DNA of 64,000 nucleotides from Naegleria gruberi. Its lineage: Eukaryota. The translations under genes and the position numbers were made by a program. The stretch is taken from assembly GCA_000004985.1 (NCBI GenBank), contig GG738929.1. One strand, 5' to 3'. Shown here in pieces: positions 20,413-57,210 of the stretch (position 1 is its first letter; each line of letters begins with the position of its first letter). The notes below the pieces were generated by a model that had not been told where the DNA came from, ran no database searches, and was given only the letters and a program-made list of their open reading frames with translations.

Positions 20413-21570
20413 ATGCCCTTTAATAACACCTACACTCCTCAAACTGATAATAACAACCATATGGTGGCACCACTTCCTTCCGATTCAGAGTTGATATATA
20501 TCAGCAATGAAGCAACAACAAATAATACTGATATTTACATTAGCTATAATCCAAGTAGCTATCAAGAGCAACCTCCTCCTTCCTTTAGTACAGCCTTAAA
20601 TGATCCCTCCGAATCACAACCATCAGCAGCTATTTTCTATCAAACACAAGTAAACAGCAGCTACGGCAATATGGAAGATAGTAGTAGTGCAATAGTTTAT
20701 AATCAAGCTTACCCATCTCTTCCTGTATTAATATCAGAAAATGAAGAAATATCAAATTCAACAAAGGTTCAACCTATTATTATTAATCTTAAACAAGATC
20801 CAAGCATAATTCCATCACATAGTAATGTTACTGTTTGTGATAATACAACCCCTTACCAAGTAGTTGTTGATCATTCTGCAATTAATATGAACATTAATTC
20901 CTATGTACCAGCCTCAAATCCAACAAGCAGTAATAACAATTCTCATTTTGGTGGACCTTTGATGAAGTTGGTCGATTTTCTAATGTTTGTAAGAACTTTA
21001 AGGTCCTCTGACTTTAATAGACATAAGAGAAATGGACAGCAACTTATCAACATAACTTTACTATCGACATTCATTGGTGTTGGCACCCTTATTGCATGTG
21101 CAGTTTTATTTGGAATAGCTAATGGAGATATTGTTATGATTAATGATGACACAGCTGTATCTTATATTCATAAAGGATGCTGTGACATTACCAAACATAC
21201 GTGTGATGGGACTGGCTATTGTAATTTAATTATAGCATTTCCTCCTCTCAATGCAGAATTTGCTAAGGATAATTCACATGGATATAATATTAATTGTAAG
21301 AGTTTTGATTCTTTGAAGAAAAAAACCTTGACATTCTCTCAACAATTAACATATCCAACAGCTGACATGACTTGGCACGATATTGATTGTTACACGAATA
21401 AGGAAGAAACAATAGCTAGGATTGAGACACCTTTTAGTGAACTCTATGCCTCCTATAGAGTTGGAGGGACAATTTGTGCTTGTATTGGAGGGACATCGAC
21501 TGCATTAGCAATGTCCATGATTTTCTTAATGTGTAAAACAATAATTAATAAGTATAAAAGTTCTTACTAG
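20413..21570 (+). CDS. hypothetical membrane protein (Ser/Thr/Asn-rich N-terminus, two predicted TM helices flanking a Cys-containing loop)
   Basis: ATG 20413, TAG stop, 385 aa. TM candidates INITLLSTFIGVGTLIACAVLFGIANG and ICACIGGTSTALAMSMIFLMC. Loop with KGCCDITKHTCDGTGYCN. No recognised domain. Confidence 0.5.
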   Translation: MPFNNTYTPQTDNNNHMVAPLPSDSELIYISNEATTNNTDIYISYNPSSYQEQPPPSFSTALNDPSESQPSAAIFYQTQVNSSYGNMEDSSSAIVYNQAYPSLPVLISENEEISNSTKVQPIIINLKQDPSIIPSHSNVTVCDNTTPYQVVVDHSAINMNINSYVPASNPTSSNNNSHFGGPLMKLVDFLMFVRTLRSSDFNRHKRNGQQLINITLLSTFIGVGTLIACAVLFGIANGDIVMINDDTAVSYIHKGCCDITKHTCDGTGYCNLIIAFPPLNAEFAKDNSHGYNINCKSFDSLKKKTLTFSQQLTYPTADMTWHDIDCYTNKEETIARIETPFSELYASYRVGGTICACIGGTSTALAMSMIFLMCKTIINKYKSSY

Positions 21571-21624
21571 TGAAGATTCGTTGGTGGTTAACTGATATTA
21601 AAATATTTTCATAATGAATAAGAT

Positions 21625-21696
21625 TCCCGTGTAGTCCAATGGCTAGGATACCTGGCTTTCACCCAGGAGGTCCGGGTTCAATTCCCGGCATGGGAG
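21625..21696 (+). tRNA. tRNA-Glu (anticodon TTC)
   Basis: TCCCGTG-TA-GTCC-AATGGCTA-GGAT-A-CCTGG-CTTTCAC-CCAGG-AGGTC-CGGGT-TCAATTC-CCGGC-ATGGGA-G. 7-bp acceptor stem (one G.U), anticodon loop CTTTCAC gives UUC, T-loop TTCAATT. T-run follows 10 nt downstream. Confidence 0.9.
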
Positions 21697-21795
21697 AATC
21701 ATTTTGCTTTTATCAATTTTCTAATTTATACAAAGAGAAAAGGATTCAGTATTTTCTGTTTGCAACCTAGTTGTTAAATATTTTAGTATCATAAT

Positions 21796-21914
21796 CGGCT
21801 ACGGCCATATCACGATGAATGCACCTCATCCCGTCCGATTTGAGAAGTTAAGCATCGTCGAGCCACATCAGTACTGAGGTTGGAGACAACTTGGGAACCT
21901 GTGGTGCTGTAGTC
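21796..21914 (+). rRNA. 5S ribosomal RNA gene
   Basis: cGGCTACGGCCATATCACGATGAATGCACCTCATCCCGTCCGATTTGAGAAGTTAAGCATCGTCGAGCCACATCAGTACTGAGGTTGGAGACAACTTGGGAACCTGTGGTGCTGTAGTC. Same length, helix order and conserved blocks as eukaryotic 5S (GCCATA.CAC, CCGATCTC/TTGAG, AAGTTAAGC, AGTACT, GGGAA.ACC.GGTGCTGTAG). Followed by the TTTTT Pol III terminator at 21915..21919. Confidence 0.9.
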
Positions 21915-21919
21915 TTTTT
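21915..21919 (+). terminator. Pol III T-run terminator of the 5S gene
   Basis: gtcTTTTTa immediately 3' of the 5S sequence. The same 25-bp flank (TCTTTTTATTTTCCTTATTATCTGT) is shared by the inverted second copy. Confidence 0.5.
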
Positions 21920-23613: not shown

Positions 23614-24155
23614 AATCCAAAAAAAAGGATTTGGCATTACAAACGAAGAGAGGAGATTGGCTACCTGGTATCCAGAACGAAAGGTCTCAACACATTATTC
23701 CTATTGCATTAATTTTGCTAGAATGTATTTTAAAGGTCCAATTTCAATGAAGAGTTACTGAAATCATCAGATTGGACAGTTAAGATTGTGATTGTCGGTG
23801 GAATAAAGAAGAAAAAGATTTTACGCGTATGGGCTGTACTTTGATGATTCTTCGAGTGATTTCACATACTGAAGCTACCAAACTTTCACAACATCACCTA
23901 TATACTATTACTAGTGATTTTTGTTTGTGGATTATCATCAAACAACTCTCCAAAAAGCAAATCTTAGATAAAATTGAATCATAGAAAGTAAATTGTTGAA
24001 ACATTAGCCAACTAGAATTATTCCACCATTAGAGACAACTGAAGGAGAATCTGTTCCCTGAAAATAGTTACAGAACAGAATACTCCAAACAAGGAGGTTA
24101 TCTCAATCCAACCAATATTTCAAACAATTATTACAGATAATAAGGAAAATAAAAA

Positions 24156-24273
24156 GACTACAGCACCACAGGTTCCCAAGTTGTCTCCAACCTCAGTACT
24201 GATGTGGCTCGACGATGCTTAACTTCTCAAATCGGACGGGATGAGGTGCATTCATCGTGATATGGCCGTAGCC
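24156..24273 (-). rRNA. 5S ribosomal RNA gene, second copy, inverted relative to the first
   Basis: gactacagcaccacaggttcccaagttgtctccaacctcagtactgatgtggctcgacgatgcttaacttctcaaatcggacgggatgaggtgcattcatcgtgatatggccgtagcc is the reverse complement of the 21796..21914 sequence (near-identical). A-run (T-run on the coding strand) at 24151..24155. Confidence 0.85.
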
Positions 24274-34766: not shown

Positions 34767-35900
34767 TTAGAAACACTTTCTGTGGACAATACCTGGGCCG
34801 GCATCCTCATATTCTTCCTTTGTGATCCACATTTGTTGGAAAGTGGACAATGAAGCCAAGATGGAACCACCAATCCAGACAGAGTACTTTCTTTCTGGTG
34901 GAGCAACAACCTTAATCTTCATGGAGGCTGGAGCCATAGCAGTCAATTCCTTGGTCATTCTTTCAGCAATACCTTCGAACATAGTAGTACCACCAGACAA
35001 GACAACGTTACCGTACAAGTCCTTTCTGATATCAATATCACATTTACCAATGGAGTTGAAAGTAGTTTCATGAACACCAGCAGCTTCCATACCAATGAAG
35101 TTTGGTTGGAACAAAACTTCTGGACATCTGAATCTTTCGTTACCGACAGTAATGACATTACCGTCTGGCAATTCGTATGACTTTTCAACAGATGATGATT
35201 CAGCAGCAACCTTCATTTCAGCTTCAAAGTCCAAAGCAATATAACAGAGCTTTTCCTTGATATCTCTGACAATTTCTCTTTCAGCAGTTGTGTTGAATGA
35301 GTAACCTCTTTCCATCAAAATCTTCATCAAGTAATCAGTCAAGTCACGACCAGCCAAATCCAATCTCAAAATGGCGTGTGGCAAAGCATAACCTTCATAG
35401 ATAGGAACAGTGTGGGAAACACCATCACCAGAGTCCAAAACAATACCAGTAGTTCTACCAGAAGCATACAAGGACAAGACAGCTTGAATGGCAACATACA
35501 TAGCTGGAACTGAGAAAGTTTCAAACATAATTTGAGTCATCTTTTCTCTGTTAGCCTTTGGATTCAAAGGAGCTTCAGTCAACAAGACTGGATGTTCTTC
35601 TGGAGCAACTCTCAATTCATTGTAGAAAGTGTGATGCCAGATCTTTTCCATATCGTCCCAATTGGTAACAATACCGTGTTCAATTGGATACTTCAAAGTC
35701 AAGATACCTCTCTTAGATTGAGCTTCATCACCAACATAGGCATCCTTGTTACCCATACCAACCATGATGGACTTTTGCTTTGGTCTACCAATAATTGAAG
35801 GGAAGACAGCTCTTGGAGCATCATCACCAGCAAAACCAGCTTTACACATACCAGAACCGTTGTCAACAACGAGGGCTTGAACGTCTTCACAGAAGGACAT
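34767..35900 (-). CDS. act: actin (intronless)
   Basis: The track ORF begins at TTG 35987. The true ATG at 35900 gives [129 protein letters not shown]...[10 protein letters not shown], 377 aa. It is near-identical to conventional actin throughout, except the divergent segment [14 protein letters not shown]. Confidence 0.95.
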
Positions 35901-36468
35901 TTTGAATTTTGAGTTTTTTTTGATTTGTGTGAAAAAATGATCAGTTGCAAGATGGATTTTAAATGGTTTGTGAAAAGAATCAAACAACCAATGGATTGAT
36001 GGGATGGTTGACAGGTGAATGATGGTTAAGTCGTCAAGTGACTTACAGTAAAGATCTTGATGGCTGTAACAACACGTAAGCCATTGTAACTTGAATTACA
36101 GTTTAAATGATGCCTGTACATGAAGTGGTGACTTATCATTTCTTCACCTCAACACAACTCATCCATCAACATATGAAGTAGTACTCGCTAATGTGCACTA
36201 CCAGGAAGTGTTATTCTTTATCTGTTCCTAGAAATTATAGTAACAAGCAACATGGACCAAGATTGTTATTTTCAAATATTAAGCACCAGAAACACATCCA
36301 TGTAGTTTTACATGTAATCGATTCATCTTTAAATCGTGTTTATGGACCCGAATTTTAATATATAACTCACTGAAAAAATATAAATTGAAGATTTTGAAAC
36401 ATCAACTTGATATCTGCACCATCAATCGATTGTAGAACTTGTTGCGATATTTTACAATAAGCAAAAAA

Positions 36469-48496: not shown

Positions 48497-50136
48497 TTAT
48501 TTACGAGGTGGTCTGTATCCGTGCTTGATTGCTGTTTTGAGAAGATGGGGATCTTGCTGTAGTTGTGGAGGAAGATCTGGAAAGATTTTACCATTTAATC
48601 TGAGACATGAAATAATGTTGGATTTGGGAAGAGTAAGGAGTTGAGTTGGAGAAATTTTCATGATGGCATTAGCATTCGATTTTAGCAGTAAGGTCAGTAA
48701 AATTTCCTCACTCGAGTATGTGTAATTATCTGGAAGGTGTGAAATGGTGTGAGCTTTGAAATTTGGGGAACGAATGACTGTTTCAATAACACAATCAAGT
48801 TTTTTAAATTCTGTTGGAATGTGCTTGAGAATATCTGGATAAATTTCAAGAAGTTCTAAAATGATGTCCAGTGTTTGATACTTTTTTGGGATGAATTCTA
48901 AAGCAAAAGGAGTTTGTTTGAGGGCACATTTCAATATTTCCACATCTTCCATATAATCATCAAAAAATCCAATTGTTGTTCCATCTGCCTTTACGCATTG
49001 TAAAATTTGATCTCTGGTCAACTTGGACTTATCCAAATATTGAACTATCCCAGCACCAATCATGGCATTAATGACATCTTCATTCGAATGCAATTCTACT
49101 GGAATATTTTCAGCAATAATCATTCCACGGCCATCAGAATAGTTCAATGCATTTACAATAAATTCCTTATCATATTTGAACCCCTTTGGTAAACAATAGT
49201 AGTGTGTAGGATTAAACTGAATAATTTTCATTTGAATATCTCTATGACTTAACAATGAAGAATGAAAATGAACATATAGAGAGGGATGCAATTCAAGTAT
49301 TCTCAGAGCCATTTCTTTATCAGATCTCACTCTCTCAGACGCATACTCGTATGATTTGGGTTCCATTTCAATTATTATCCAAATAAAATCCAAATTATCA
49401 TCAAATCTACTTTTAAGAGTATTCAAAATTGGTCTATATAAAAAACATTCCACATATTTAGAATTTAACAATGCATCCAGAGCTTGCTTATCCTCAAACC
49501 AGTCATACCAATCCTTAATTATTCCAAGAATAGACCTATCATACCTGAGAGCTGTCAAACACAGATCGTGATCATTCCTAAGCAACTTGATTAATTGTTC
49601 AGTAAAAACTCCTCTCCAACTAAACTCTTAACAATTTCAGTTTCATTAATAACTAATTTCAAATCAAGTCTTGCCAATATATTTCTATTCATCGTATCCA
49701 TTCTCAACAAATCATTCAATAATGTTTCTTTCATTGATTTTGGTAATATGAAATAATATTCCAAATCTACTTTTAACAATTCCAAAGCTTTATCTCTATT
49801 GTGAATATTTAATTGAGTTAAACGCAAATAATTAATTAGATTTTTGCAGTAAATTAACTCTTCCTTATTGAATGTTGTAAAATGTTTATAAACAATTAGC
49901 ACGTGACGGGAAATGGAAATTAATTCCTTGACAAAATTTAAATCATCAATTACATCATCATTCAATTTGTAATTCTCCAGAAACGAAATTCTACTGTTTT
50001 GATCGATACATTCTTCTAAATCGGAGAGAAATTCAATTTGTTCGATTCTTTTTCGTTGCGTGTATGAAAAGAAAGATCGTAAATGATTACATGATGAAAA
50101 ATCTATCAATTCCAACACCACTTCATGTTCTGCCAT
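48497..50136 (-). CDS. hypothetical protein. 2 exons: 50136..49633 and 49585..48497; intron 49632..49586, 47 nt, GTTAAG...TCAAG
   Basis: Track ORFs 49591..50136 and 48497..49585 differ by +2 frame and overlap by 37 nt. A 47-nt GT..AG intron joins ...LKLVINETEI|LLRNDHDLCLTALRYDRS... in frame (about 530 aa). Contains tandem about 35-aa helical repeats of the form E.IL.C(V/L)K.(D/T)G.....(F/I)..(D/K)....(E/D) of unknown function. Confidence 0.5.
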
Positions 50137-50263: not shown

Positions 50264-51703
50264 TTAATCAATTTGTCTTCTGAGATATGGCAAAGCAATT
50301 CTGAAGAGCTTTTCATAATCAATCTTATCAGCTTCTTCGTCCCAGTTGTTATTAATATAACCCTTAACACCTTCCTTCAAATATGGGAGAGCAGCACGCA
50401 AAATTTCCTTGAATTTGATTTCAGCATCAGCTTCTTCTTGGTATTCAGCAGAAGCAGAAACGAGGTTCTTAAGATATTCCTTACCAGTCTTCTTGAGTTC
50501 ATCACGAACAACCTTCCAGATCTTCTTCAAGAACTTGTCAGATTGTGGCATATCTTCCAATGGAATACCGAATTGAGAGGTCAAATAAGCCTTACCCAAA
50601 CCCTTAGCAATACCAACGGCCTTCTTGAAGATCTTACCGAGCTTGAGGTCAGACATTTCTTCATTTTGGTCCCAGTTGTTGTTAATATATTCCTTAACAC
50701 CAGACTTGATGTATGGCAAAACCTTCTTCCAGATCTTACCTAACTTGAGCTTTTGAGCATCAGCAGCAGAGTCAAAGTTTTGGTTGACATATGACTTGAC
50801 AGCACCCTTTCCGATATCCTTAACAACCTTCCAGACCTTACCCCAGAATTTGTCAGACAATTCCATTTCTTCATCCCAGTTTTGATTGACATAATCCTTG
50901 GCAGCATTCTTTCCGATATCCTTAACAACCTTCCAGATTGAACTGAAAAACTTTTTATCAGCTTCTTCGTCGAAATTGTTAGCAATGTAGTTCTTAACAC
51001 CAGCCTTGATGTATGGCAAAATGGTCTTGATGACTTCAGACCACTTCTTGTCAGCCATTTCTTCAGCATCCCAGTTGTTATTAATATATTGTTTAGCACC
51101 TTCCTTCAAGTATGGGAGAACAGCCTTGAACAATTTACCCAATTTGAGATCAGCTTCTTCTTCTGGAATTTCATCCCAGTTCTTGTTGACGTAATCCTTG
51201 ATGGCAGCTGTTGGTAAATATTTGATAGGTAAAGATTATCGATACAGAGGTGATGATATCGAGATTCGAATAAAATTGTTATTAGAATCGAATAGTGACA
51301 GAAGATCAGAATCATCGGTTAAAAATAATTTCCAGTCCACAAAACGATATCATTGATGATAATATCAAATAAACAATAACCAGTTATCCTCATCATTTTC
51401 ATATTACTACTTACCCTTTCCAATTTCACCGACAACCTTCAAAGCCTTCTTCCAGAATGACTTGTCAGCCAATTCTTCATCAGTCAAAATGTAGTTAGCA
51501 GGAGTACGAATCAATCTCTTGATGAGAGCAGGGGAAAGAACCAAATCAGCTTGTTCTTCAACAACAGCTGGTTGTTGTTTCAAGAAATTCTTGAAGAAAA
51601 TTGACAATTCTTGATCAGCTTGTTCAGTAACTTGAGCAGAGACTGCAATAGTTGCGAACAAGGCGACGAGCAAGAGAGCAAGTAATTGCTTGGAAACGTT
51701 CAT
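50264..51703 (-). CDS. secreted repeat protein: signal peptide plus about 10 tandem 33-38-aa Lys/Trp-rich amphipathic units separated by acidic NNNWDEE-type linkers. 2 exons: 51703..51415 and 51207..50264; intron 51414..51208, 207 nt, GTAAGT...AACAG
   Basis: Signal peptide MNVSKQLLALLLVALFATIAVSAQV. Units such as KFWGKVWKVVKDIGKGAVKSYVNQNFD and KIWKKVLPYIKSGVKEYINNNWDQNEEMSD. No Cys. Splicing joins ...FWKKALKVVGEIGK|AAIKDYVNKNWDE..., preserving the repeat phase. Total about 410 aa. Track ORFs 50144..50743(+) and 50740..51099(-) are out-of-frame or antisense shadows of this repetitive gene. Confidence 0.65.
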
Positions 51704-52270
51704 GTTCGTTGATTGTTTTTTTTTTAGATGATGAAAATTTGAAAGGAGCGTGATTGGCACTTTTTGAATGAAAGATTGTAATCAGCATAAATAAACATTG
51801 GAATCAAGAAGTCGTACATGGATAGTTATAATAACTACAAAAGATTTTAACAACCTACAATGTTGGGACTATGTTGGATTGGTATGACCTGTTTTGTTGG
51901 ATTCGTGTTAGGTCAAAGAGATTCGTGCTGTGGCTCTGAAGTTAATGGTTGCATTTCCCTGTTTTAGAGCAAATACACAACATTTCATCATTATAATCTG
52001 AAGGAGTTATTGTTTACAAAATATTGACCTCATAATATCAACATTGGTTTGTACATTATCAATTATCTGATGAAAATATTGAGATTGGTTCCTAATCATC
52101 ATATTATAATGATACTAAATACTAATGGTGCATCCAACTAACTTTTAACTTACTGAGTTTCATAAATTAATAGGTATGAATCTTTGGGATTATTTCTAAG
52201 AATCACAGGTAATAGATATCTTTTAAATTTCCTTGTTTGCAATTACTGATTGAATTGCAAATATTCTTGT

Positions 52271-52945
52271 TAACAACAGGGAGAAACAAAAACATCTTCC
52301 TTGTCTGAAAGAATTAGCTCAATGGCACTTCTGACATCTTCCTTGTTTGTTGTATTAATAATGTGATAGGTACAAATACTCTCCCTTGATGCAGTATCTA
52401 ACGCTTCATCCACTCTTGAAGTTTCATCAAGCAACATTGATTAAATTCAGAAAGAGAGGCCATTAGAATGACAATATTTAAATTACCATATGAACGATTC
52501 CAGTTGCCTCTTTCATGCATGTTTACTCCAAAAATATCTATAAATTGAATCTTGTTCAAATCTTTCTGGATGGAATGAAAGAACATTGGGTTTTGAATAG
52601 AACTTGGATCAAAGATTGTTTCAGAGCTAATTTTCATAATAATCTCTTCTTAATTTTCAAATAATTGATTTTCATCTTTATTCCATTTCGATTCAATTTC
52701 TTTTTGCATTTTCCATCTCTCCCACATAATTGAGCATGAAAAATATAAACTTGATTCAAAACTTTCTCTTGTGAGACAATTAGTTTTTTCATTGGAAATA
52801 ATCCTTGTAAGCCATGGAAAAATGTTGTTTTTCCAACAGAATACGTTCCTATAATAATGGCCTTAGCGAGTTTCTTGTCATTACCTCTGCAAATATTTTG
52901 ATAGATGGAATGAAGAGTGAGAGGTTCCCATTTTTTAATAAACAA
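52271..52945 (-). pseudogene. Ras-superfamily small-GTPase-like locus with degenerate G motifs and C-terminal CC prenylation tail. Fragmented across three frames with no in-frame ATG, so it is a pseudogene or a gene with unresolved very short introns
   Basis: Frame 1 (52945..52634): ...KAIIIGTYSVGKTTFFHGLQG (P-loop G....GKTT). Frame 2 (52637..52398): FIDIFGVNMHERGNWNRSYGNLNIVILMASLSEFN (G3-like DxxG region). Frame 3 (to stop at 52271): ...RESICTYHIINTTNKEDVRSAIELILSDKEDVFVSPCC stop (NKxD-like NKED, SAx as SAI, Rab-type CC terminus). A 38-nt GTTGCT...TTAG intron could join frames 2 and 3. The 5' end begins only 43 bp from a tRNA gene. Confidence 0.4.
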
Positions 52946-52987
52946 ATTGATTTTTACATGTAAGGAAATTGTTTAAAAAGATTATTA

Positions 52988-53062
52988 ACCCGCTACCAGG
53001 ACTTGAACCTGGATCATGCGGAATGAATAAGTCGCATATTCTAACCATTGAACTACAGCGGG
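52988..53062 (-). tRNA. tRNA gene with atypical anticodon arm. Anticodon unresolved, possibly Ile-UAU with a micro-intron, or a pseudogene
   Basis: Minus-strand read: CCCGCTG-TA-GTTC-AATGGTTA-GAAT-ATGCG-ACTTATTCATTC-CGCAT-GAT-CCAGG-TTCAAGT-CCTGG-TAGCGGG-T (75 nt). Acceptor, D and T arms are well formed (T-loop TTCAAGT). The anticodon stem ATGCG/CGCAT encloses a 12-nt loop ACTTATTCATTC instead of 7. Confidence 0.65.
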
Positions 53063-53144
53063 TTGTGTAAATTATCTAAAAATATAATCATGATCAGCAT
53101 ACGCTTACAAATAAAAACATACCGAATGCAATGTTTATTGAAAA

Positions 53145-55040
53145 TTATTGAAAAAACTCTGGAAAATAAAAGTACAATATCATTCCTATAGTAGAAATGA
53201 TCAGGAATGAACTCATCCATGAAATGGAAGATGACTCTGGTTCACTTGTTGTTACCTCTTCATTTTCTTGAGTTTCTTCAACTTGTTCTTCCTCCTTATT
53301 GAGTTCCTCTATCTGATTCTTCAATTGTTTGTTTTCTTTTGTTAAAAGAACATTTTCTGCTTGAAGCTGTTTGATGATCTTTTCTTTTTGAAGAGTCATA
53401 TAAGTATCCTTCTTCAACTGAGATATCTGTTGATCCTTTTCTTGTATTTTTTGTAATAATTCTTGTTCGACTTCTGAGTTGGAAGTAGTATCTTGTTGTT
53501 TCTTATTGGATTTTACATCTTTTTGGGAGGAAACTGGTTGTTGAGAATGGGTTGTAGTCTTTTTGAAAATTGCTTCATAATTTTCAATTAAAAACTGACA
53601 AAAATCACAAACAATAGCGATTGTTTGTTGTTGATTTTTGAGTTGAGTTTTAAGAGAAAATCTTTGATATTCATCCATGTTCAATTTCTTTGAATCGCTC
53701 TCTGATGGAAGGTAGAGTAAATTAGGACCAATCACGATACCCATATTCTTACTTGTCATTTTAGTAAGTGTCACATTTTCTTCATTACAACAAATTTCAT
53801 GTAATAAATTCATGAGCTCTGACAATATCGATTTGTTACATTCTGGAAGGTCAATCATGAGAAGTTTGACCTTATCAATAAGAGTTTTGGTTTTTTCAGG
53901 AGTTCTTCCAGTAAACATTTCAATTACCTCCTCATACTTGTCAAATGTGAGTAAACATTCAGGTAAGTTTCTAATATAATGTTTGATTAAATCTGCAACT
54001 ACCATCACACCAAAACTTTGTGGAATTTCAATAGCCAAATCATTGTACATTTCTGGGAATGCCATAAAACTGTTAAACAATTTACACAACTCTAACACTC
54101 TTCTCTTTGAACCAGCCTCTCTGAATATTCCCAAAGTTTTCACACCCTTATTATCTCTCAAATATTTCAAACAAACTCTGAGAATGTATGGAACTTTGAT
54201 GGGATTTAACAATTCCTTACCTAATAAATCTCCACAAATTGGTTTTCGTGTACTGTCTTCCTTCTTTTCCAATTGTTTGTGATATTGTTGCATATTGAAG
54301 AGAGTTTCATTGAGGCAGACCATTGTTGGAGAGAGATTCATAACACAAACTCTTGACAAATCAATGGCAGGATTCAGTTCAATAAAGAGAAAATCATCAC
54401 TAATATGATCTACGTTGGAAAGGAATTCATTGGAAGATAATACATGACATAATTGATCCATGTTAGTACTATTTGAATTGAACATTTGAATTTCAATAAT
54501 TTGAAACAAGTATATAACTTACCATTCTCCAGCATAACTGAAAACAGTATCTGACATTTTCACCATCTTCTTTTTGATTTTCCCCTTTTGTTGCTCAGGA
54601 GGATTGAATAAATTATCGGCAGACAATTGACTATTCGAAGGAAGATTAGAATCCAAAACAGTACTCGATGGAGCAGTAGTGGTAGTTGTGGATGACGAAT
54701 TATTCATAATTTTCTTTTTGAGATTGAGTGAGGATCTTCCAATGTTAGTCAGAAAATTCTTCTTTTGTTTGGTTTTAACACACCACAATAGGAATGAAAC
54801 TTGTTGCTCCTTTTCGAGTGGTGATTGAGAGAATGTGGAGGCATACTCTGAAAAGATTTTAGAAATTGAGCTGTCAGGAGATTTGGCTGGCAGAAGGATT
54901 TGTAACTTTTCCTGAAGAGAGTCAAGAATATTGAGAAAGGTTATTTGTTTGTAGTTAGTATTGTTTGATGAAACGTTATCTAGGTAGATTGTTTCTGAAG
55001 ATAATTTGACAATAATCTTCGGGAGTGTGATTAGAGACAT
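53145..55040 (-). CDS. RhoGAP-domain protein with Ser/Thr-rich N-terminus, C-terminal coiled coil and tail-anchor TM. 2 exons: about 55040..54523 and 54468..53145; intron about 54522..54469, 54 nt, GTAAGT...AAATAG
   Basis: RhoGAP motifs: GIFREAGSKRRVLELCKLF...VMVVADLIKHYIRNLPECLLTFDKYEE...LMIDLPECNKSILSELMNLLHEICCNEENVTLTKMTSKNMGIVIGPNLL. Coiled coil: QELLQKIQEKDQQISQLKKD...KQLKNQIEELNKEEEQVEE. Tail: SSISWMSSFLIISTIGMILYFYFPEFFQ. Splice joins track ORFs 54519..55109 and 53145..54509: ...MSDTVFSYAGE|C|TNMDQLCHV... The first ATG in exon 1 is taken as the start. Coordinates near 55100 are plus or minus 1. Confidence 0.7.
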
Positions 55041-55200: not shown

Positions 55201-57210
55201 TTACAATAAAGTAAGCAGTAAAACAATGAACATCAGTCCATAAATACTAACACTCAAAGTATTAGATAAATTTCCTTGAGTACTACAATCAATACCAGCC
55301 CAACCATAGAAACATTGACATTCATCCTTAGAGCAAATACCACTCTTACAATTATGAAGTCCACATTTGAGAGTGATGGAAGAAGCTGATGATGGAATGT
55401 CACATGATGAAGTTGAGGAAAGATAACATCTACATTCTCCGTTAAAGCATACACCCCTATTGGCTTTCCAACCACATTCACTATTATAAACAGGTCCTAA
55501 ATTTGTAGTAGCTGGGCAAGAAGTTGGTGAATCATTGAATGTTGATTCAAATGAAGAATTAGATTGAATATATCGCATAGCATCAAGAGTATTGACAATA
55601 CCCCAACCTAAATCATTACCTGGTTCAGTATTTTTGGATGCTGTCATCATGACTGCTTTTCTCATTTGATATGGAGTCCAGGTTGGATTTTTCTGAAGAA
55701 TTAATGCAACACAACCAGCAACAATTGGAGTGGCAAAACTTGTTCCAGAACTTGTTAAATAGTCACTATCTGTATTTGGAGAAACCAAGTATGTTGAGCT
55801 ACCTCTTGCACTAACTTCAGGTTTTGTTCTTCCATCATCGGAAGGTCCTCTACTTGAAAAGTATGAAATTTTTCCATTAACATCCACTGATCCAACTGAG
55901 ATAACATCAAATCCATCCGAAGGAGTTCCGATAGTATTACTTCCACCTGCACCTTCATTTCCAGCAGCTAGCACCATAATTAATCCCTTGTAACGAGAAG
56001 CAATATTGACAACTCTAGTGAGTGGTGAAGTGACACCATTAAATTCCTTCTTTGAATGTGAATACCAATCAGTATATCCAAGTGAGGCACTAACAATATC
56101 TGCTCCCAATCTTTCTCCCCATTCAATAGCTTCAATAAAATTATCCTCTTCTACTTGTGTTTCAGTTCTGACATCTTCAGTTTTAGCTAATAATACTGAA
56201 GCGCCTGGAGCAGGTCCCATAAAATTACCAAGATCATAACCAGCAATAGCAGATAAACATTGTGTACCATGATTAGAAGTTGTAGCTGCTTCTCCACTTT
56301 CGTTATCAGTATTAGTGTCCTTATTTACAAAGTCATATTGTCCAGTAATATGAATTGATTTGAGTGCTTTGTGTTGAAGGTGGAATCCACTGTCACAAAC
56401 AAGAATTGTGATACCAGTTCCATTTAGTTCAGGATACATATTTCTTGTAGCCACAACATTCACTTGATTTAATTGGTTGAAAGCCACTCCATAACTAGAA
56501 TCATCAGCTACATGTCTTGTATTAACAACCTTTTGATTTCTTTCCTCTAAGTTTGATCTTTTGAAAGTGGCAACTCTTTCAATTCTATCTACAAATGCTA
56601 ATTTTTGAATCTTTTCAATTTGTTCTTGTGTTACATCAGAAACTGTAATGGCATTCAACCAATTACTACGTGCTCCAATTTTTTGATCTTGTCTTAACAT
56701 ATTTACAATCTTTTGTACGTATTCTTCTACAATAGGAACATCATGAATTGAATAGAGTGATAATTCCTCACCACTAACATCTCTCTTCAAGGAAATTGAT
56801 TCTTGAACAACTTTACGTCTTCTTGCAAGTGCCTTCTCGCTGATTGGAACACTTGTAGGAAAGTGTTTTTCCAAGCTTTCCGAAGCTAAACTTTTAAGTT
56901 TTGTTATTCTTCCATCAATGATCGAAGGAAGATGCAAAGACGATCGTGAATTCTTCTCATCAATTCCCTTATTATTAAAATATATCCAAATCTTCATCGA
57001 TGAAGGTAATGTTGATGAAGGTGTATTACTTGAATTTACTCCTCCAACCAATAATACAAAAGTTGTTGCAACAATCATCATGCTGACCACAACCATCATC
57101 ATTGAACTTTTATATTGTTTCTGCTGTTGTTGACAGGAAGACTTTGTATTCATCATCATCTTCCAAGTATTCTTGTTCGATCTTGGCAAGGCAAATGATG
57201 TGGAGAACAT
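55201..57210 (-). CDS. subtilisin-like serine protease (S8 family) with N-terminal signal anchor and propeptide-like region, C-terminal Cys-rich EGF-like module and TM anchor
   Basis: ATG 57210, 669 aa. Catalytic triad contexts ILVCDSGFHLQH (Asp), HGTQCLSAIAG (His), GTSFATPIVAGCVALI (Ser). Cys-rich tail CGWKANRGVCFNGECRCYLSSTSSCDIPSSASSITLKCGLHNCKSGICSKDECQCFYGWAGIDC. C-terminal hydrophobic IYGLMFIVLLLTLL. Single exon. Confidence 0.85.
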   Translation of the reverse strand: MFSTSFALPRSNKNTWKMMMNTKSSCQQQQKQYKSSMMMVVVSMMIVATTFVLLVGGVNSSNTPSSTLPSSMKIWIYFNNKGIDEKNSRSSLHLPSIIDGRITKLKSLASESLEKHFPTSVPISEKALARRRKVVQESISLKRDVSGEELSLYSIHDVPIVEEYVQKIVNMLRQDQKIGARSNWLNAITVSDVTQEQIEKIQKLAFVDRIERVATFKRSNLEERNQKVVNTRHVADDSSYGVAFNQLNQVNVVATRNMYPELNGTGITILVCDSGFHLQHKALKSIHITGQYDFVNKDTNTDNESGEAATTSNHGTQCLSAIAGYDLGNFMGPAPGASVLLAKTEDVRTETQVEEDNFIEAIEWGERLGADIVSASLGYTDWYSHSKKEFNGVTSPLTRVVNIASRYKGLIMVLAAGNEGAGGSNTIGTPSDGFDVISVGSVDVNGKISYFSSRGPSDDGRTKPEVSARGSSTYLVSPNTDSDYLTSSGTSFATPIVAGCVALILQKNPTWTPYQMRKAVMMTASKNTEPGNDLGWGIVNTLDAMRYIQSNSSFESTFNDSPTSCPATTNLGPVYNSECGWKANRGVCFNGECRCYLSSTSSCDIPSSASSITLKCGLHNCKSGICSKDECQCFYGWAGIDCSTQGNLSNTLSVSIYGLMFIVLLLTLL

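Follow-up and report, generated by a model that had tools for sequence, protein, structure and literature searches.

A two-exon gene for a secreted-type repeat polyprotein

The subject of this analysis is a gene on the minus strand of a 64,000-nucleotide (nt) stretch of Naegleria gruberi DNA (assembly GCA_000004985.1, contig GG738929.1; hereafter the window), a eukaryotic sequence with a G+C content of 33%. The gene encodes a polyprotein of 410 amino acids (aa) that begins with a signal peptide and continues in tandem units, each made of a cationic core followed by an acidic tail. It is probably the precursor of a set of linear cationic antibacterial peptides, which would be freed at an Asp-directed site. 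The parts of the gene and its product are as follows.

50264..51703, minus strand: whole gene, two exons, encoding the 410-aa secreted-type polyprotein; stop codon TAA at 50264-50266
51415..51703, minus strand: exon 1, 289 nt, with the ATG at 51703; aa 1-96 and the first base of codon 97
51208..51414, minus strand: intron, 207 nt, GTAAGT...ACAG, phase 1, within unit U4
50264..51207, minus strand: exon 2, ending with TAA
51635..51703, minus strand: signal peptide, aa 1-23, MNVSKQLLALLLVALFATIAVSA, read from the sequence and conserved in all family members
51614..51634, minus strand: N-terminal propiece QVTEQAD, closing with the first junction motif
51464..51613, minus strand: two divergent N-terminal segments, aa 31-53 and 54-80, each ending E-x-A-D and not strongly cationic
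51149..51463, minus strand: U4, B-type, aa 81-116, KSFWKKALKVVGEIGKAAIKDYVNKNWD followed by EIPEEEAD; the span takes in the intron
51050..51148, minus strand: U5, A-type, aa 117-149, LKLGKLFKAVLPYLKEGAKQYINNNWD followed by AEEMAD
50957..51049, minus strand: U6, A-type, aa 150-180
50852..50956, minus strand: U7, B-type, aa 181-215
50759..50851, minus strand: U8, B-type, aa 216-246, KFWGKVWKVVKDIGKGAVKSYVNQNFD followed by SAAD
50648..50758, minus strand: U9, A-type, aa 247-283
50537..50647, minus strand: U10, C-type, aa 284-320, LKLGKIFKKAVGIAKGLGKAYLTSQFGIPLED followed by MPQSD; the cassette type most widespread in the family
50426..50536, minus strand: U11, D-type, aa 321-357, KFLKKIWKVVRDELKKTGKEYLKNL...
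50327..50425, minus strand: U12, A-type, aa 358-390, weakly cationic (+2)
50267..50326, minus strand: U13, truncated A-type of 20 aa, aa 391-410, KIDYEKLFRIALPYLRRQID

Judged by eye, MNVSKQLLALLLVALFATIAVSA|QV at the N-terminus follows the n/h/c scheme of signal peptides, with small residues at positions -3 and -1. The intron splits U4 at GEIGK|AAIKDY and the reading frame is kept across it; in the N. lovaniensis orthologue the intron, there ~425 nt long, lies at the identical codon (GEIGK|AAI), and the intron position is shared with N. fowleri as well. The product contains 60 Lys, 35 Glu, 28 Asp and 7 Arg but neither Cys nor His, and its net charge as a whole is only about +4. Within each unit the charges are segregated, with a core of +2 to +7 preceding a tail of -1 to -6, and at every unit boundary the tail closes with E-x-[AS]-D; there is no Arg at the junctions.

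Twelve x-x-[AS]-D sites, where 3.8 [AS]D would be expected from composition, divide the protein into 13 segments. The first is the signal peptide with its propiece and the next two are the divergent N-terminal segments; nine full units, each 31-37 aa long, and the truncated unit make up the rest. The units fall into three or four subtypes, namely A (..LPY(I/L)K.G.K.YINNNWD), B (KFW.K.WKVVKDIGKGA.K.YVNQN(W/F)D), C (LKLGKIFKKAVGIAKGLGKAYLTSQFGIPLED) and D (KFLKKIWKVVRDELKKTGKEYLKNL..). Their similarity, measured by pairwise Smith-Waterman scores against shuffles, is well above chance: the mean pairwise local BLOSUM62 score of the nine full units is 62.0, compared with 19.5 +/- 0.7 (maximum 22.2) in 200 shuffles. 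A blastp self-comparison of the protein returned the diagonal alone. At the DNA level the copies are 60-88% identical and Tandem Repeats Finder (TRF) detects no tandem array; because they have diverged and are invisible to TRF, we take them to be old copies maintained by selection rather than a recent array.

The two N-terminal segments stand apart from the cationic units. The motif YILTDEELAD is invariant in the three full-length Naegleria-type sequences that were aligned (the window protein, P0001 and P0002) and is also present in N. fowleri P0012; its equivalent in Willaertia P0004 is YYLSEDELAD, and P0003 is without that region. These segments (aa 31-80) may be a sorting signal or a pro-domain.

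A preliminary description of this locus, made from the letters and their open reading frames (ORFs), had proposed a secreted-type repeat protein with alternating cationic and anionic stretches, no cysteines, a 207-nt intron that preserves the unit phase, and linkers such as EEMELSD, EEADKK, SAADAQ and QNEEMSD. All of this holds, down to the exact length of the intron and each of the four linkers. Its count of about ten units also stands, as nine full and one truncated; its single consensus of 33-38 aa does not, given the shorter lengths and the subtypes found here. It had suggested a search for dibasic or acidic processing sites, and a sharply defined acidic junction, E-x-[AS]-D, is what we found. 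That junction, the division into subtypes and the stronger conservation of tails than of cores (see below) go beyond the earlier account.

A search for paralogues inside the window found none. A weak tblastn match at 61.6-61.9 kb was considered as a candidate and rejected, as it falls in an unrelated, acidic 723-aa ORF.

A heterolobosean family of motif-bounded cassettes

Homologues were sought with a word-indexed search and an exhaustive hidden Markov model (HMM) search over 1.8 billion representatives. Only about 25 relatives were found, in N. fowleri, N. lovaniensis, Willaertia magna (at least seven named paralogues), and metagenomes or metatranscriptomes; two further paralogues came from NCBI assembly GCA_041937235.1. 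The N. lovaniensis orthologue is C9374_005675 (66% identity), and FDP41_005569, located via cluster membership, is that of N. fowleri. The exon-1 read-through ORF of the window has a verbatim copy on a metagenome contig (P0023).

Pfam searches with the window protein gave sub-threshold noise only (GUN4_N at 0.0034 and others), and searches of PDB sequences, whether by the protein alone or by a profile of five sequences, gave no match with E < 0.005. The profile placed the antimicrobial peptide (AMP) nicomicin-1 at 0.26, which is not significant. These results agree with the preliminary description, which had recognised no described family, and suggest that the family is an undescribed one, known so far only in Naegleria and Willaertia amoebae and in metagenomes. 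We rejected membership in the ocellatin family: although one protein, the Willaertia paralogue P0006, exceeds the threshold of PF08110 (32.9 bits against a gathering threshold, GA, of 22.7), the match is short, comprising two stretches of ~10 aa ('LLDILKGAAKD'), and we judge it convergent or compositional; the window protein has no hit to this family. A styelin match in paralogues was sub-threshold. Weak as they are, both similarities to AMP families lean towards an antimicrobial role.

All relatives begin with the same signal peptide and are built of motif-terminated cassettes; in each of them a brief propiece that closes with ..[AS]D comes next after the signal peptide. In 12 of the 12 members examined, [AS]D occurs three to four times as often as expected. 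Over 121 junction sites in the family, position -4 is Glu in 72 and position -3 is Glu, Gln or Leu in 102, while position -2 is Ala in 78 and Ser in 43. What lies between the junctions varies in kind: the cassettes include helical Lys-rich units of three or four types, Arg-rich runs, Pro-rich stretches, small Cys-rich tails and an NlpC/P60 domain. The Arg-rich runs (for example RRRRFGPRRQRVPRF...) close with ..VE[SA]D without exception, and the Pro-rich stretches include DPFDPRPRPTYP.. and YPIRPRPIPIPAPVP. Orthologues differ by gain or loss of whole cassettes bounded by the motif. The small Cys-rich modules stand at the ends of P0022 and P0017.

Five relatives (P0009, P0010, P0011, P0021 and P0026) carry a C-terminal NlpC/P60 domain, which Pfam does not find in the window protein. 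In P0009 and P0011 the domain (PF00877) is identified by Pfam at 1e-13 and by PDB entry 8er5 at 1.4e-15, and further matches are to LytE, RipA, CwlO, MepS and the Trichomonas NlpC enzymes. In P0010, P0021 and P0026 it was read by eye from the same FDCSGLV motif and, where the sequence extends that far, from GHVGIYVG. The NlpC/P60 paralogues thus retain the catalytic Cys (..DCSG..) and His (..GHVGIY..) motifs. In four of these five, P0021 being the exception, the enzyme domain begins right after the junction motif (..NNNLAD|TQ.., ..EEESD|SMNGG..). Because the same cassettes are fused to a peptidoglycan-degrading enzyme, we take bacteria to be the likely target.

Several environmental members (L005, P0014, P0021 and P0022) lie on transcript-like contigs in which a short 5' leader is read in frame. 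L005, a JGI 3300011370 contig of 1375 nt, is mRNA-like and ends in a short run of A that is possibly the start of a poly(A) tail. These contigs indicate that the form fused to NlpC/P60 is probably transcribed in nature.

Lysine-faced amphipathic helices

The preliminary description had proposed hydrophobic-moment analysis of each unit as a check on their amphipathic nature, and the outcome supports it. On the Eisenberg scale, the best 18-residue stretch of each unit has a moment of 0.55-0.71, above at least 98% of shuffles in 9 of the 10 units, and in 9 of 10 the moment peaks within the range typical of alpha-helices, 90-110 degrees per residue. The polar faces carry 5-9 Lys or Arg against 0-1 Asp or Glu in 8 of the 10 units (U12 has 5:2 and the truncated U13 has 4:3). 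Such Lys-dominated faces follow the pattern of magainin, latarcin and pleurocidin, whereas the class A helices of ApoA-I have, on the same measure, 1-3 Lys or Arg and 3-5 Asp or Glu. The units are close to known lytic peptides in their charge and hydrophobic moment too.

This comparison bears on the second of two roles that the preliminary description had offered as an either/or, antimicrobial peptides or an apolipophorin-like lipid binder. Tandem amphipathic helices of 23-29 residues with short breaks, some with a helix-breaking Pro (LPY), are what one would expect of an exchangeable apolipoprotein or apolipophorin-like carrier whose helices wrap lipid. The polar faces are nevertheless Lys-dominated where class A faces are zwitterionic, and the acidic residues are segregated to the tails, off the helix face. 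There are no apolipoprotein or ApoLp-III hits in Pfam and no hits among PDB sequences even by profile, and fusions to a wall hydrolase would make no sense for a lipid carrier. The Lys faces and the enzyme fusions together make a lipid binder very improbable and speak for the antimicrobial alternative.

An AlphaFold2 (AF2) model of exon 2, built from a five-sequence alignment, predicts one helix of 23-29 residues per unit separated by non-helical acidic linkers. Its confidence is low (predicted local distance difference test, pLDDT, 35; predicted template modelling score, pTM, 0.19), and within that limit it predicts no inter-helix or tertiary packing. As a rough control, a fusion paralogue modelled at an equally shallow alignment gave, also at low confidence, a pLDDT of 64-75 for the enzyme part and 29-40 for the cassettes. 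The prediction is consistent with, but not conclusive for, peptides that fold only on membranes.

Purifying selection and predicted high expression

Comparison of the window gene with those of N. lovaniensis and N. fowleri gives a ratio of nonsynonymous to synonymous substitution rates (dN/dS) of 0.20-0.23. The tails, defined as Y-x-N-x-N-[WF]-D with the acidic run and [AS]D, have a dN/dS of 0.10-0.14, compared with 0.24-0.31 for the cationic cores. Positive selection on the cores is therefore not seen. The tighter constraint on the tails implies that the so-called spacers are at least as important as the cargo. Conserved processing or pro regions combined with faster-evolving mature parts are the pattern of frog peptide precursors.

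The codon usage of the gene is strongly biased relative to the other ORFs of the window: AAG makes up 88% versus 39%, TTC 88% versus 32%, AAC 71% versus 24%, and GGT 84% versus 42%. Its index of C/G-ending codons is 0.66, where the median is 0.29, and is the highest of 42 ORF segments in the window. The second most biased ORF, which served as a yardstick, is an actin gene (34770-36095, minus strand) with an index of 0.60. A bias above that of actin suggests, indirectly, that the polyprotein gene is very highly expressed.

A protein that is repetitive, of secreted type and probably abundant might also be a structural component of the cyst wall, surface coat or extracellular matrix, devoid of membrane activity. 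Homology to a structural repeat protein, for which the preliminary description had proposed a check, was not found in Pfam or PDB searches, and no tertiary packing is predicted. Cys, Ser/Thr/Pro-rich glycosylation regions and low-complexity runs are all absent from the protein, and wall proteins do not typically have their units shuffled with modules of enzyme, Arg-rich and Pro-rich kinds. Taken together, these features leave a structural role highly unlikely.

Proposed processing and antibacterial function

The reading that we consider probable is that the gene encodes a pre-pro-polyprotein. The signal peptide would direct it into the endoplasmic reticulum (ER) and on to the secretory or endolysosomal pathway. 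In the intact precursor, the acidic tails offset the cationic cores to give a near-neutral chain, which may keep the producing cell unharmed. Cutting at E-x-[AS]-D, most simply after the Asp, would release about ten linear, Cys-free, Lys/Trp-rich amphipathic peptides of alpha-helical type. Once free, these would bind and permeabilise anionic bacterial membranes, either in the phagosome or outside the cell, and so help a bacterivorous amoeba to kill or lyse its prey. For this cargo an Asp/small-residue junction is a more sensible choice than the usual dibasic site: Lys-Lys pairs abound in it, as do Arg runs in Willaertia, and a kexin-type enzyme would cut it to pieces. The protease would have to recognise more than an Asp at P1, since K-D dipeptides within the cores must be spared.

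Candidate processing enzymes are an Asp-specific subtilase, as are the plant phytaspases, or legumain at acidic pH, for which the conserved Asn run might be a further site. Asp-directed maturation has precedents in cnidarian neuropeptide precursors, which are cut after Asp or Glu, and in the phytaspases, Asp-specific subtilases that release systemin and phytosulfokine (PSK). Two other candidate routes were considered and rejected. An S8 subtilase is encoded nearby (55201-57210), but its best PDB matches are generic subtilisins rather than kexin, furin or plant subtilases, and nothing links it specifically to the polyprotein. Trimming by a dipeptidyl peptidase, in the style of melittin or alpha-factor, would call for Ala or Pro at alternate positions, which the propieces (for example QQQEAD) lack.

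A number of points weigh against a cleaved antibacterial precursor. The literature that we searched contains no paper or proteomic record of the gene or its orthologues and describes neither a linear peptide family in Heterolobosea nor a matching protease, Naegleria legumain included; to our knowledge, an E-x-[AS]-D-specific protease has not been reported from these amoebae. The cores themselves contain Asp (VVKD|IGKG, IKD|YVN), so that plain Asp specificity would destroy the peptides. The gene evolves under purifying constraint and not under the diversifying selection often seen in host-defence peptides, and two of the ten units, U12 and U13, are merely +2. Three further points would also suit a protein that stays uncut: in the AF2 model [AS]D lies within 0-5 residues of each helix start and so could be a helix N-cap; conservation within the unit is strongest in the tail stretch Y-x-N-x-N-[WF]-D, which is unexpected for a disposable spacer and matches the stronger constraint on tails than on cores; and the enzyme junction of P0021 (..GVPLSE|TSSPGD..) is without the motif.

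Such an uncut protein is the main rival reading. It would be secreted or lysosomal, and its roughly ten cationic amphipathic helices, still joined in a string, would bind and destabilise bacterial envelopes multivalently, with [AS]D acting as charge-balancing linker and as helix N-cap, a position that Asp and Ser suit well. The NlpC/P60 paralogues would use the string as a targeting or permeabilising arm, like the cationic helices of some phage endolysins, and a covalently attached, membrane-active arm would benefit the enzyme. The placement of the motif is harder to reconcile with this role. It also occurs directly after the signal peptide, at the ends of Arg-rich and Pro-rich modules that are not helical, and before the enzyme in all but one of the fusions, and entire cassettes are gained, lost and shuffled at it. 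A near-neutral chain (+4) would furthermore have its binding to anionic membranes blunted, and AF2 predicts no packing between helices. We therefore regard the uncut string as unlikely, though it deserves to be weighed, and retain cleavage into separate peptides as the preferred reading.

The peptides might instead act outside the cell on something other than bacteria, as cytolysins against eukaryotic prey or host cells, which would be relevant to N. fowleri, or as signalling or pheromone peptides. Multi-copy precursors are typical of signalling peptides too (PMC5850478), and the spider linear peptides of similar design are primarily cytolytic components of venom (PMC7889660). The conserved P-Y, G and Y-x-N-x-N-W-D positions are likewise more typical of peptides recognised by a receptor than of AMPs. 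Signalling, however, would not need a charge of +4 to +6 or moments of the membrane-active type; the same cassettes are fused to a peptidoglycan endopeptidase; and the family is present in the non-pathogenic N. lovaniensis and W. magna as well as in N. fowleri. We consider a role of this kind distinctly improbable in comparison with an antibacterial one.

Comparison with known precursors

In working principle, the closest match is with the complex precursors of spider venoms (cupiennins, latarcins and lycosins). There a signal peptide and an anionic propeptide come first, cationic, amphipathic, helical and Cys-free peptides follow with short anionic linkers between them that bear a constant cleavage motif, and different peptide families are mixed within a transcript (PMC7889660). 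The amoeba protein has the signal peptide and anionic propiece, the tandem cationic helices and the motif-bearing anionic linkers that define this functional class. The spider linkers are Arg-flanked (processing quadruplet motif, PQM, and its inverted form, iPQM) and cut after Arg, whereas the amoeba junction, E-x-[AS]-D, contains no basic residue. There is no homology to the cupiennin or latarcin precursors, and all homologues are heterolobosean or metagenomic, so the polyprotein is an analogue and not a member of the spider family. The spider peptides are made in an animal gland; the producer here is a unicellular heterolobosean, and an enzyme cassette is present in some family members. In spiders both processing and activity have been proven, whereas for the amoeba proteins they are proposed from the sequence.

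Within the amoebae, naegleriapores, pore-forming peptides of Naegleria that reportedly derive from multipeptide precursors (work attributed to Herbst et al., 2002/2004), and the amoebapores of Entamoeba resemble the present system in having several peptides per precursor and a presumed role in killing ingested bacteria. Naegleriapores have a six-Cys saposin fold, whereas the polyprotein has no Cys, no SapB hit in Pfam and no predicted compact fold, and is thus not a member of that family.

The precursors of insect and frog peptides (apidaecin and other proline-rich AMPs, PrAMPs; dermaseptin and ocellatin; promelittin) are alike in that acidic pro-regions neutralise a cationic cargo and that signal and pro regions are conserved while the mature parts are more variable. 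They are processed at KR/RR or by dipeptidyl peptidases, and the frog precursors hold a single peptide. None is homologous to the polyprotein. Apidaecin-type precursors are reported to be tandem polyproteins (PMC11549390, PMC3415428).

For the fusion paralogues, the nearest likeness is with the Trichomonas vaginalis enzymes NlpC A1/A2 (PDB 6BIM/6BIQ), another case of a protist armed with a bacterial-type wall hydrolase. The Trichomonas enzymes are targeted by SH3b domains and not by cationic helix cassettes.

Implications

Free-living amoebae are major predators of bacteria, and their known peptide weapons are essentially Cys-rich, saposin-like pore formers. If our reading is right, amoebae also possess a second, unrelated arsenal of linear cationic peptides derived from polyproteins. 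More broadly, and as a tentative proposal that we hold with less confidence than the precursor reading itself, the family might constitute a lineage-specific, heterolobosean 'cassette' defence system, in which Lys-rich, Arg-rich and Pro-rich peptides and a peptidoglycan hydrolase are freed by an E-x-[AS]-D protease of the secretory or lysosomal compartment. The system would extend to the pathogen N. fowleri and be expanded in W. magna. It would then be the first linear (non-saposin) AMP family of a protist and would involve a new, Asp-directed form of processing. The design of a multi-peptide precursor is already known from spiders, insects and frogs; new here are the lineage, the family, the junction motif and the enzyme cassettes.

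The gene would offer about ten peptide candidates ready for synthesis, such as KFWGKVWKVVKDIGKGAVKSYVNQNF (U8) and LKLGKIFKKAVGIAKGLGKAYLTSQFGIPL, and the family dozens. Combining peptide and enzyme cassettes in one precursor would be a natural counterpart of engineered lysin-peptide fusions, and the invariant junction is a testable starting point in the search for an Asp-directed, non-dibasic processing protease of a deep-branching eukaryote. The family would also supply a hypothesis, at present a speculative link, for the Legionella killing and the biocontrol activity of lysates of W. magna, with its seven or more paralogues. If the reading holds, FDP41_005569 would add an unstudied secreted product to the virulence candidates of N. 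fowleri. The system is thus of relevance to amoeba-bacteria ecology, the biology of N. fowleri and W. magna, peptide discovery and non-dibasic proprotein processing.

Genomic context

The order Pus10, S8 subtilase, RhoGAP, polyprotein gene and leucine-rich repeat (LRR)/F-box gene is common to the window and N. lovaniensis, and the gene order on N. fowleri-type contigs agrees with it. The subtilisin-type S8 protease gene (55201-57210, minus strand; 669 aa) lies two genes from the polyprotein gene and has a like position in N. lovaniensis. Immediately downstream of the polyprotein gene are two adjacent ORFs of 362 and 181 aa (48497-50136, minus strand), which may be one gene; at the corresponding position of N. 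lovaniensis the beginning of the LRR/F-box gene matches them weakly, and no other counterpart was found.

In N. lovaniensis (locus L001, 6379-9694) and on N. fowleri-type contigs (L003, 885-4005), a multi-BRCT gene of ~1000 aa lies between the RhoGAP and polyprotein genes. No tblastx trace of it was found in the corresponding 1.6-kb gap of the window (51704-53290), which suggests a lineage-specific loss or relocation. Between the window's polyprotein and RhoGAP genes there is a tRNA-like gene (52987-53063, minus strand; Rfam tRNA, 50.5 bits) to which ARAGORN gives no definite identity, calling an anticodon of four bases (attc); the gene may contain an intron or be unusual in some other way.

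About 6 kb downstream of the N. lovaniensis orthologue, L001 17564-18920 encodes a 399-aa protein without Pfam hits that shows weak tblastn matches (E ~4e-4) to family members, reflecting either compositional similarity or a very distant relationship. Elsewhere in the window, two 5S rRNA genes (21797-21915, plus strand, and 24155-24273, minus strand; Rfam 105.4 bits each) stand inverted ~2.2 kb apart and flank its most AT-rich stretch (22-24 kb, 28.8% GC). A tRNA-Glu(TTC) gene (21624-21697, plus strand) adjoins the first of them, and a 5S-like segment matching those of the window lies at the end of the N. lovaniensis locus (L001 ~21130-21270).

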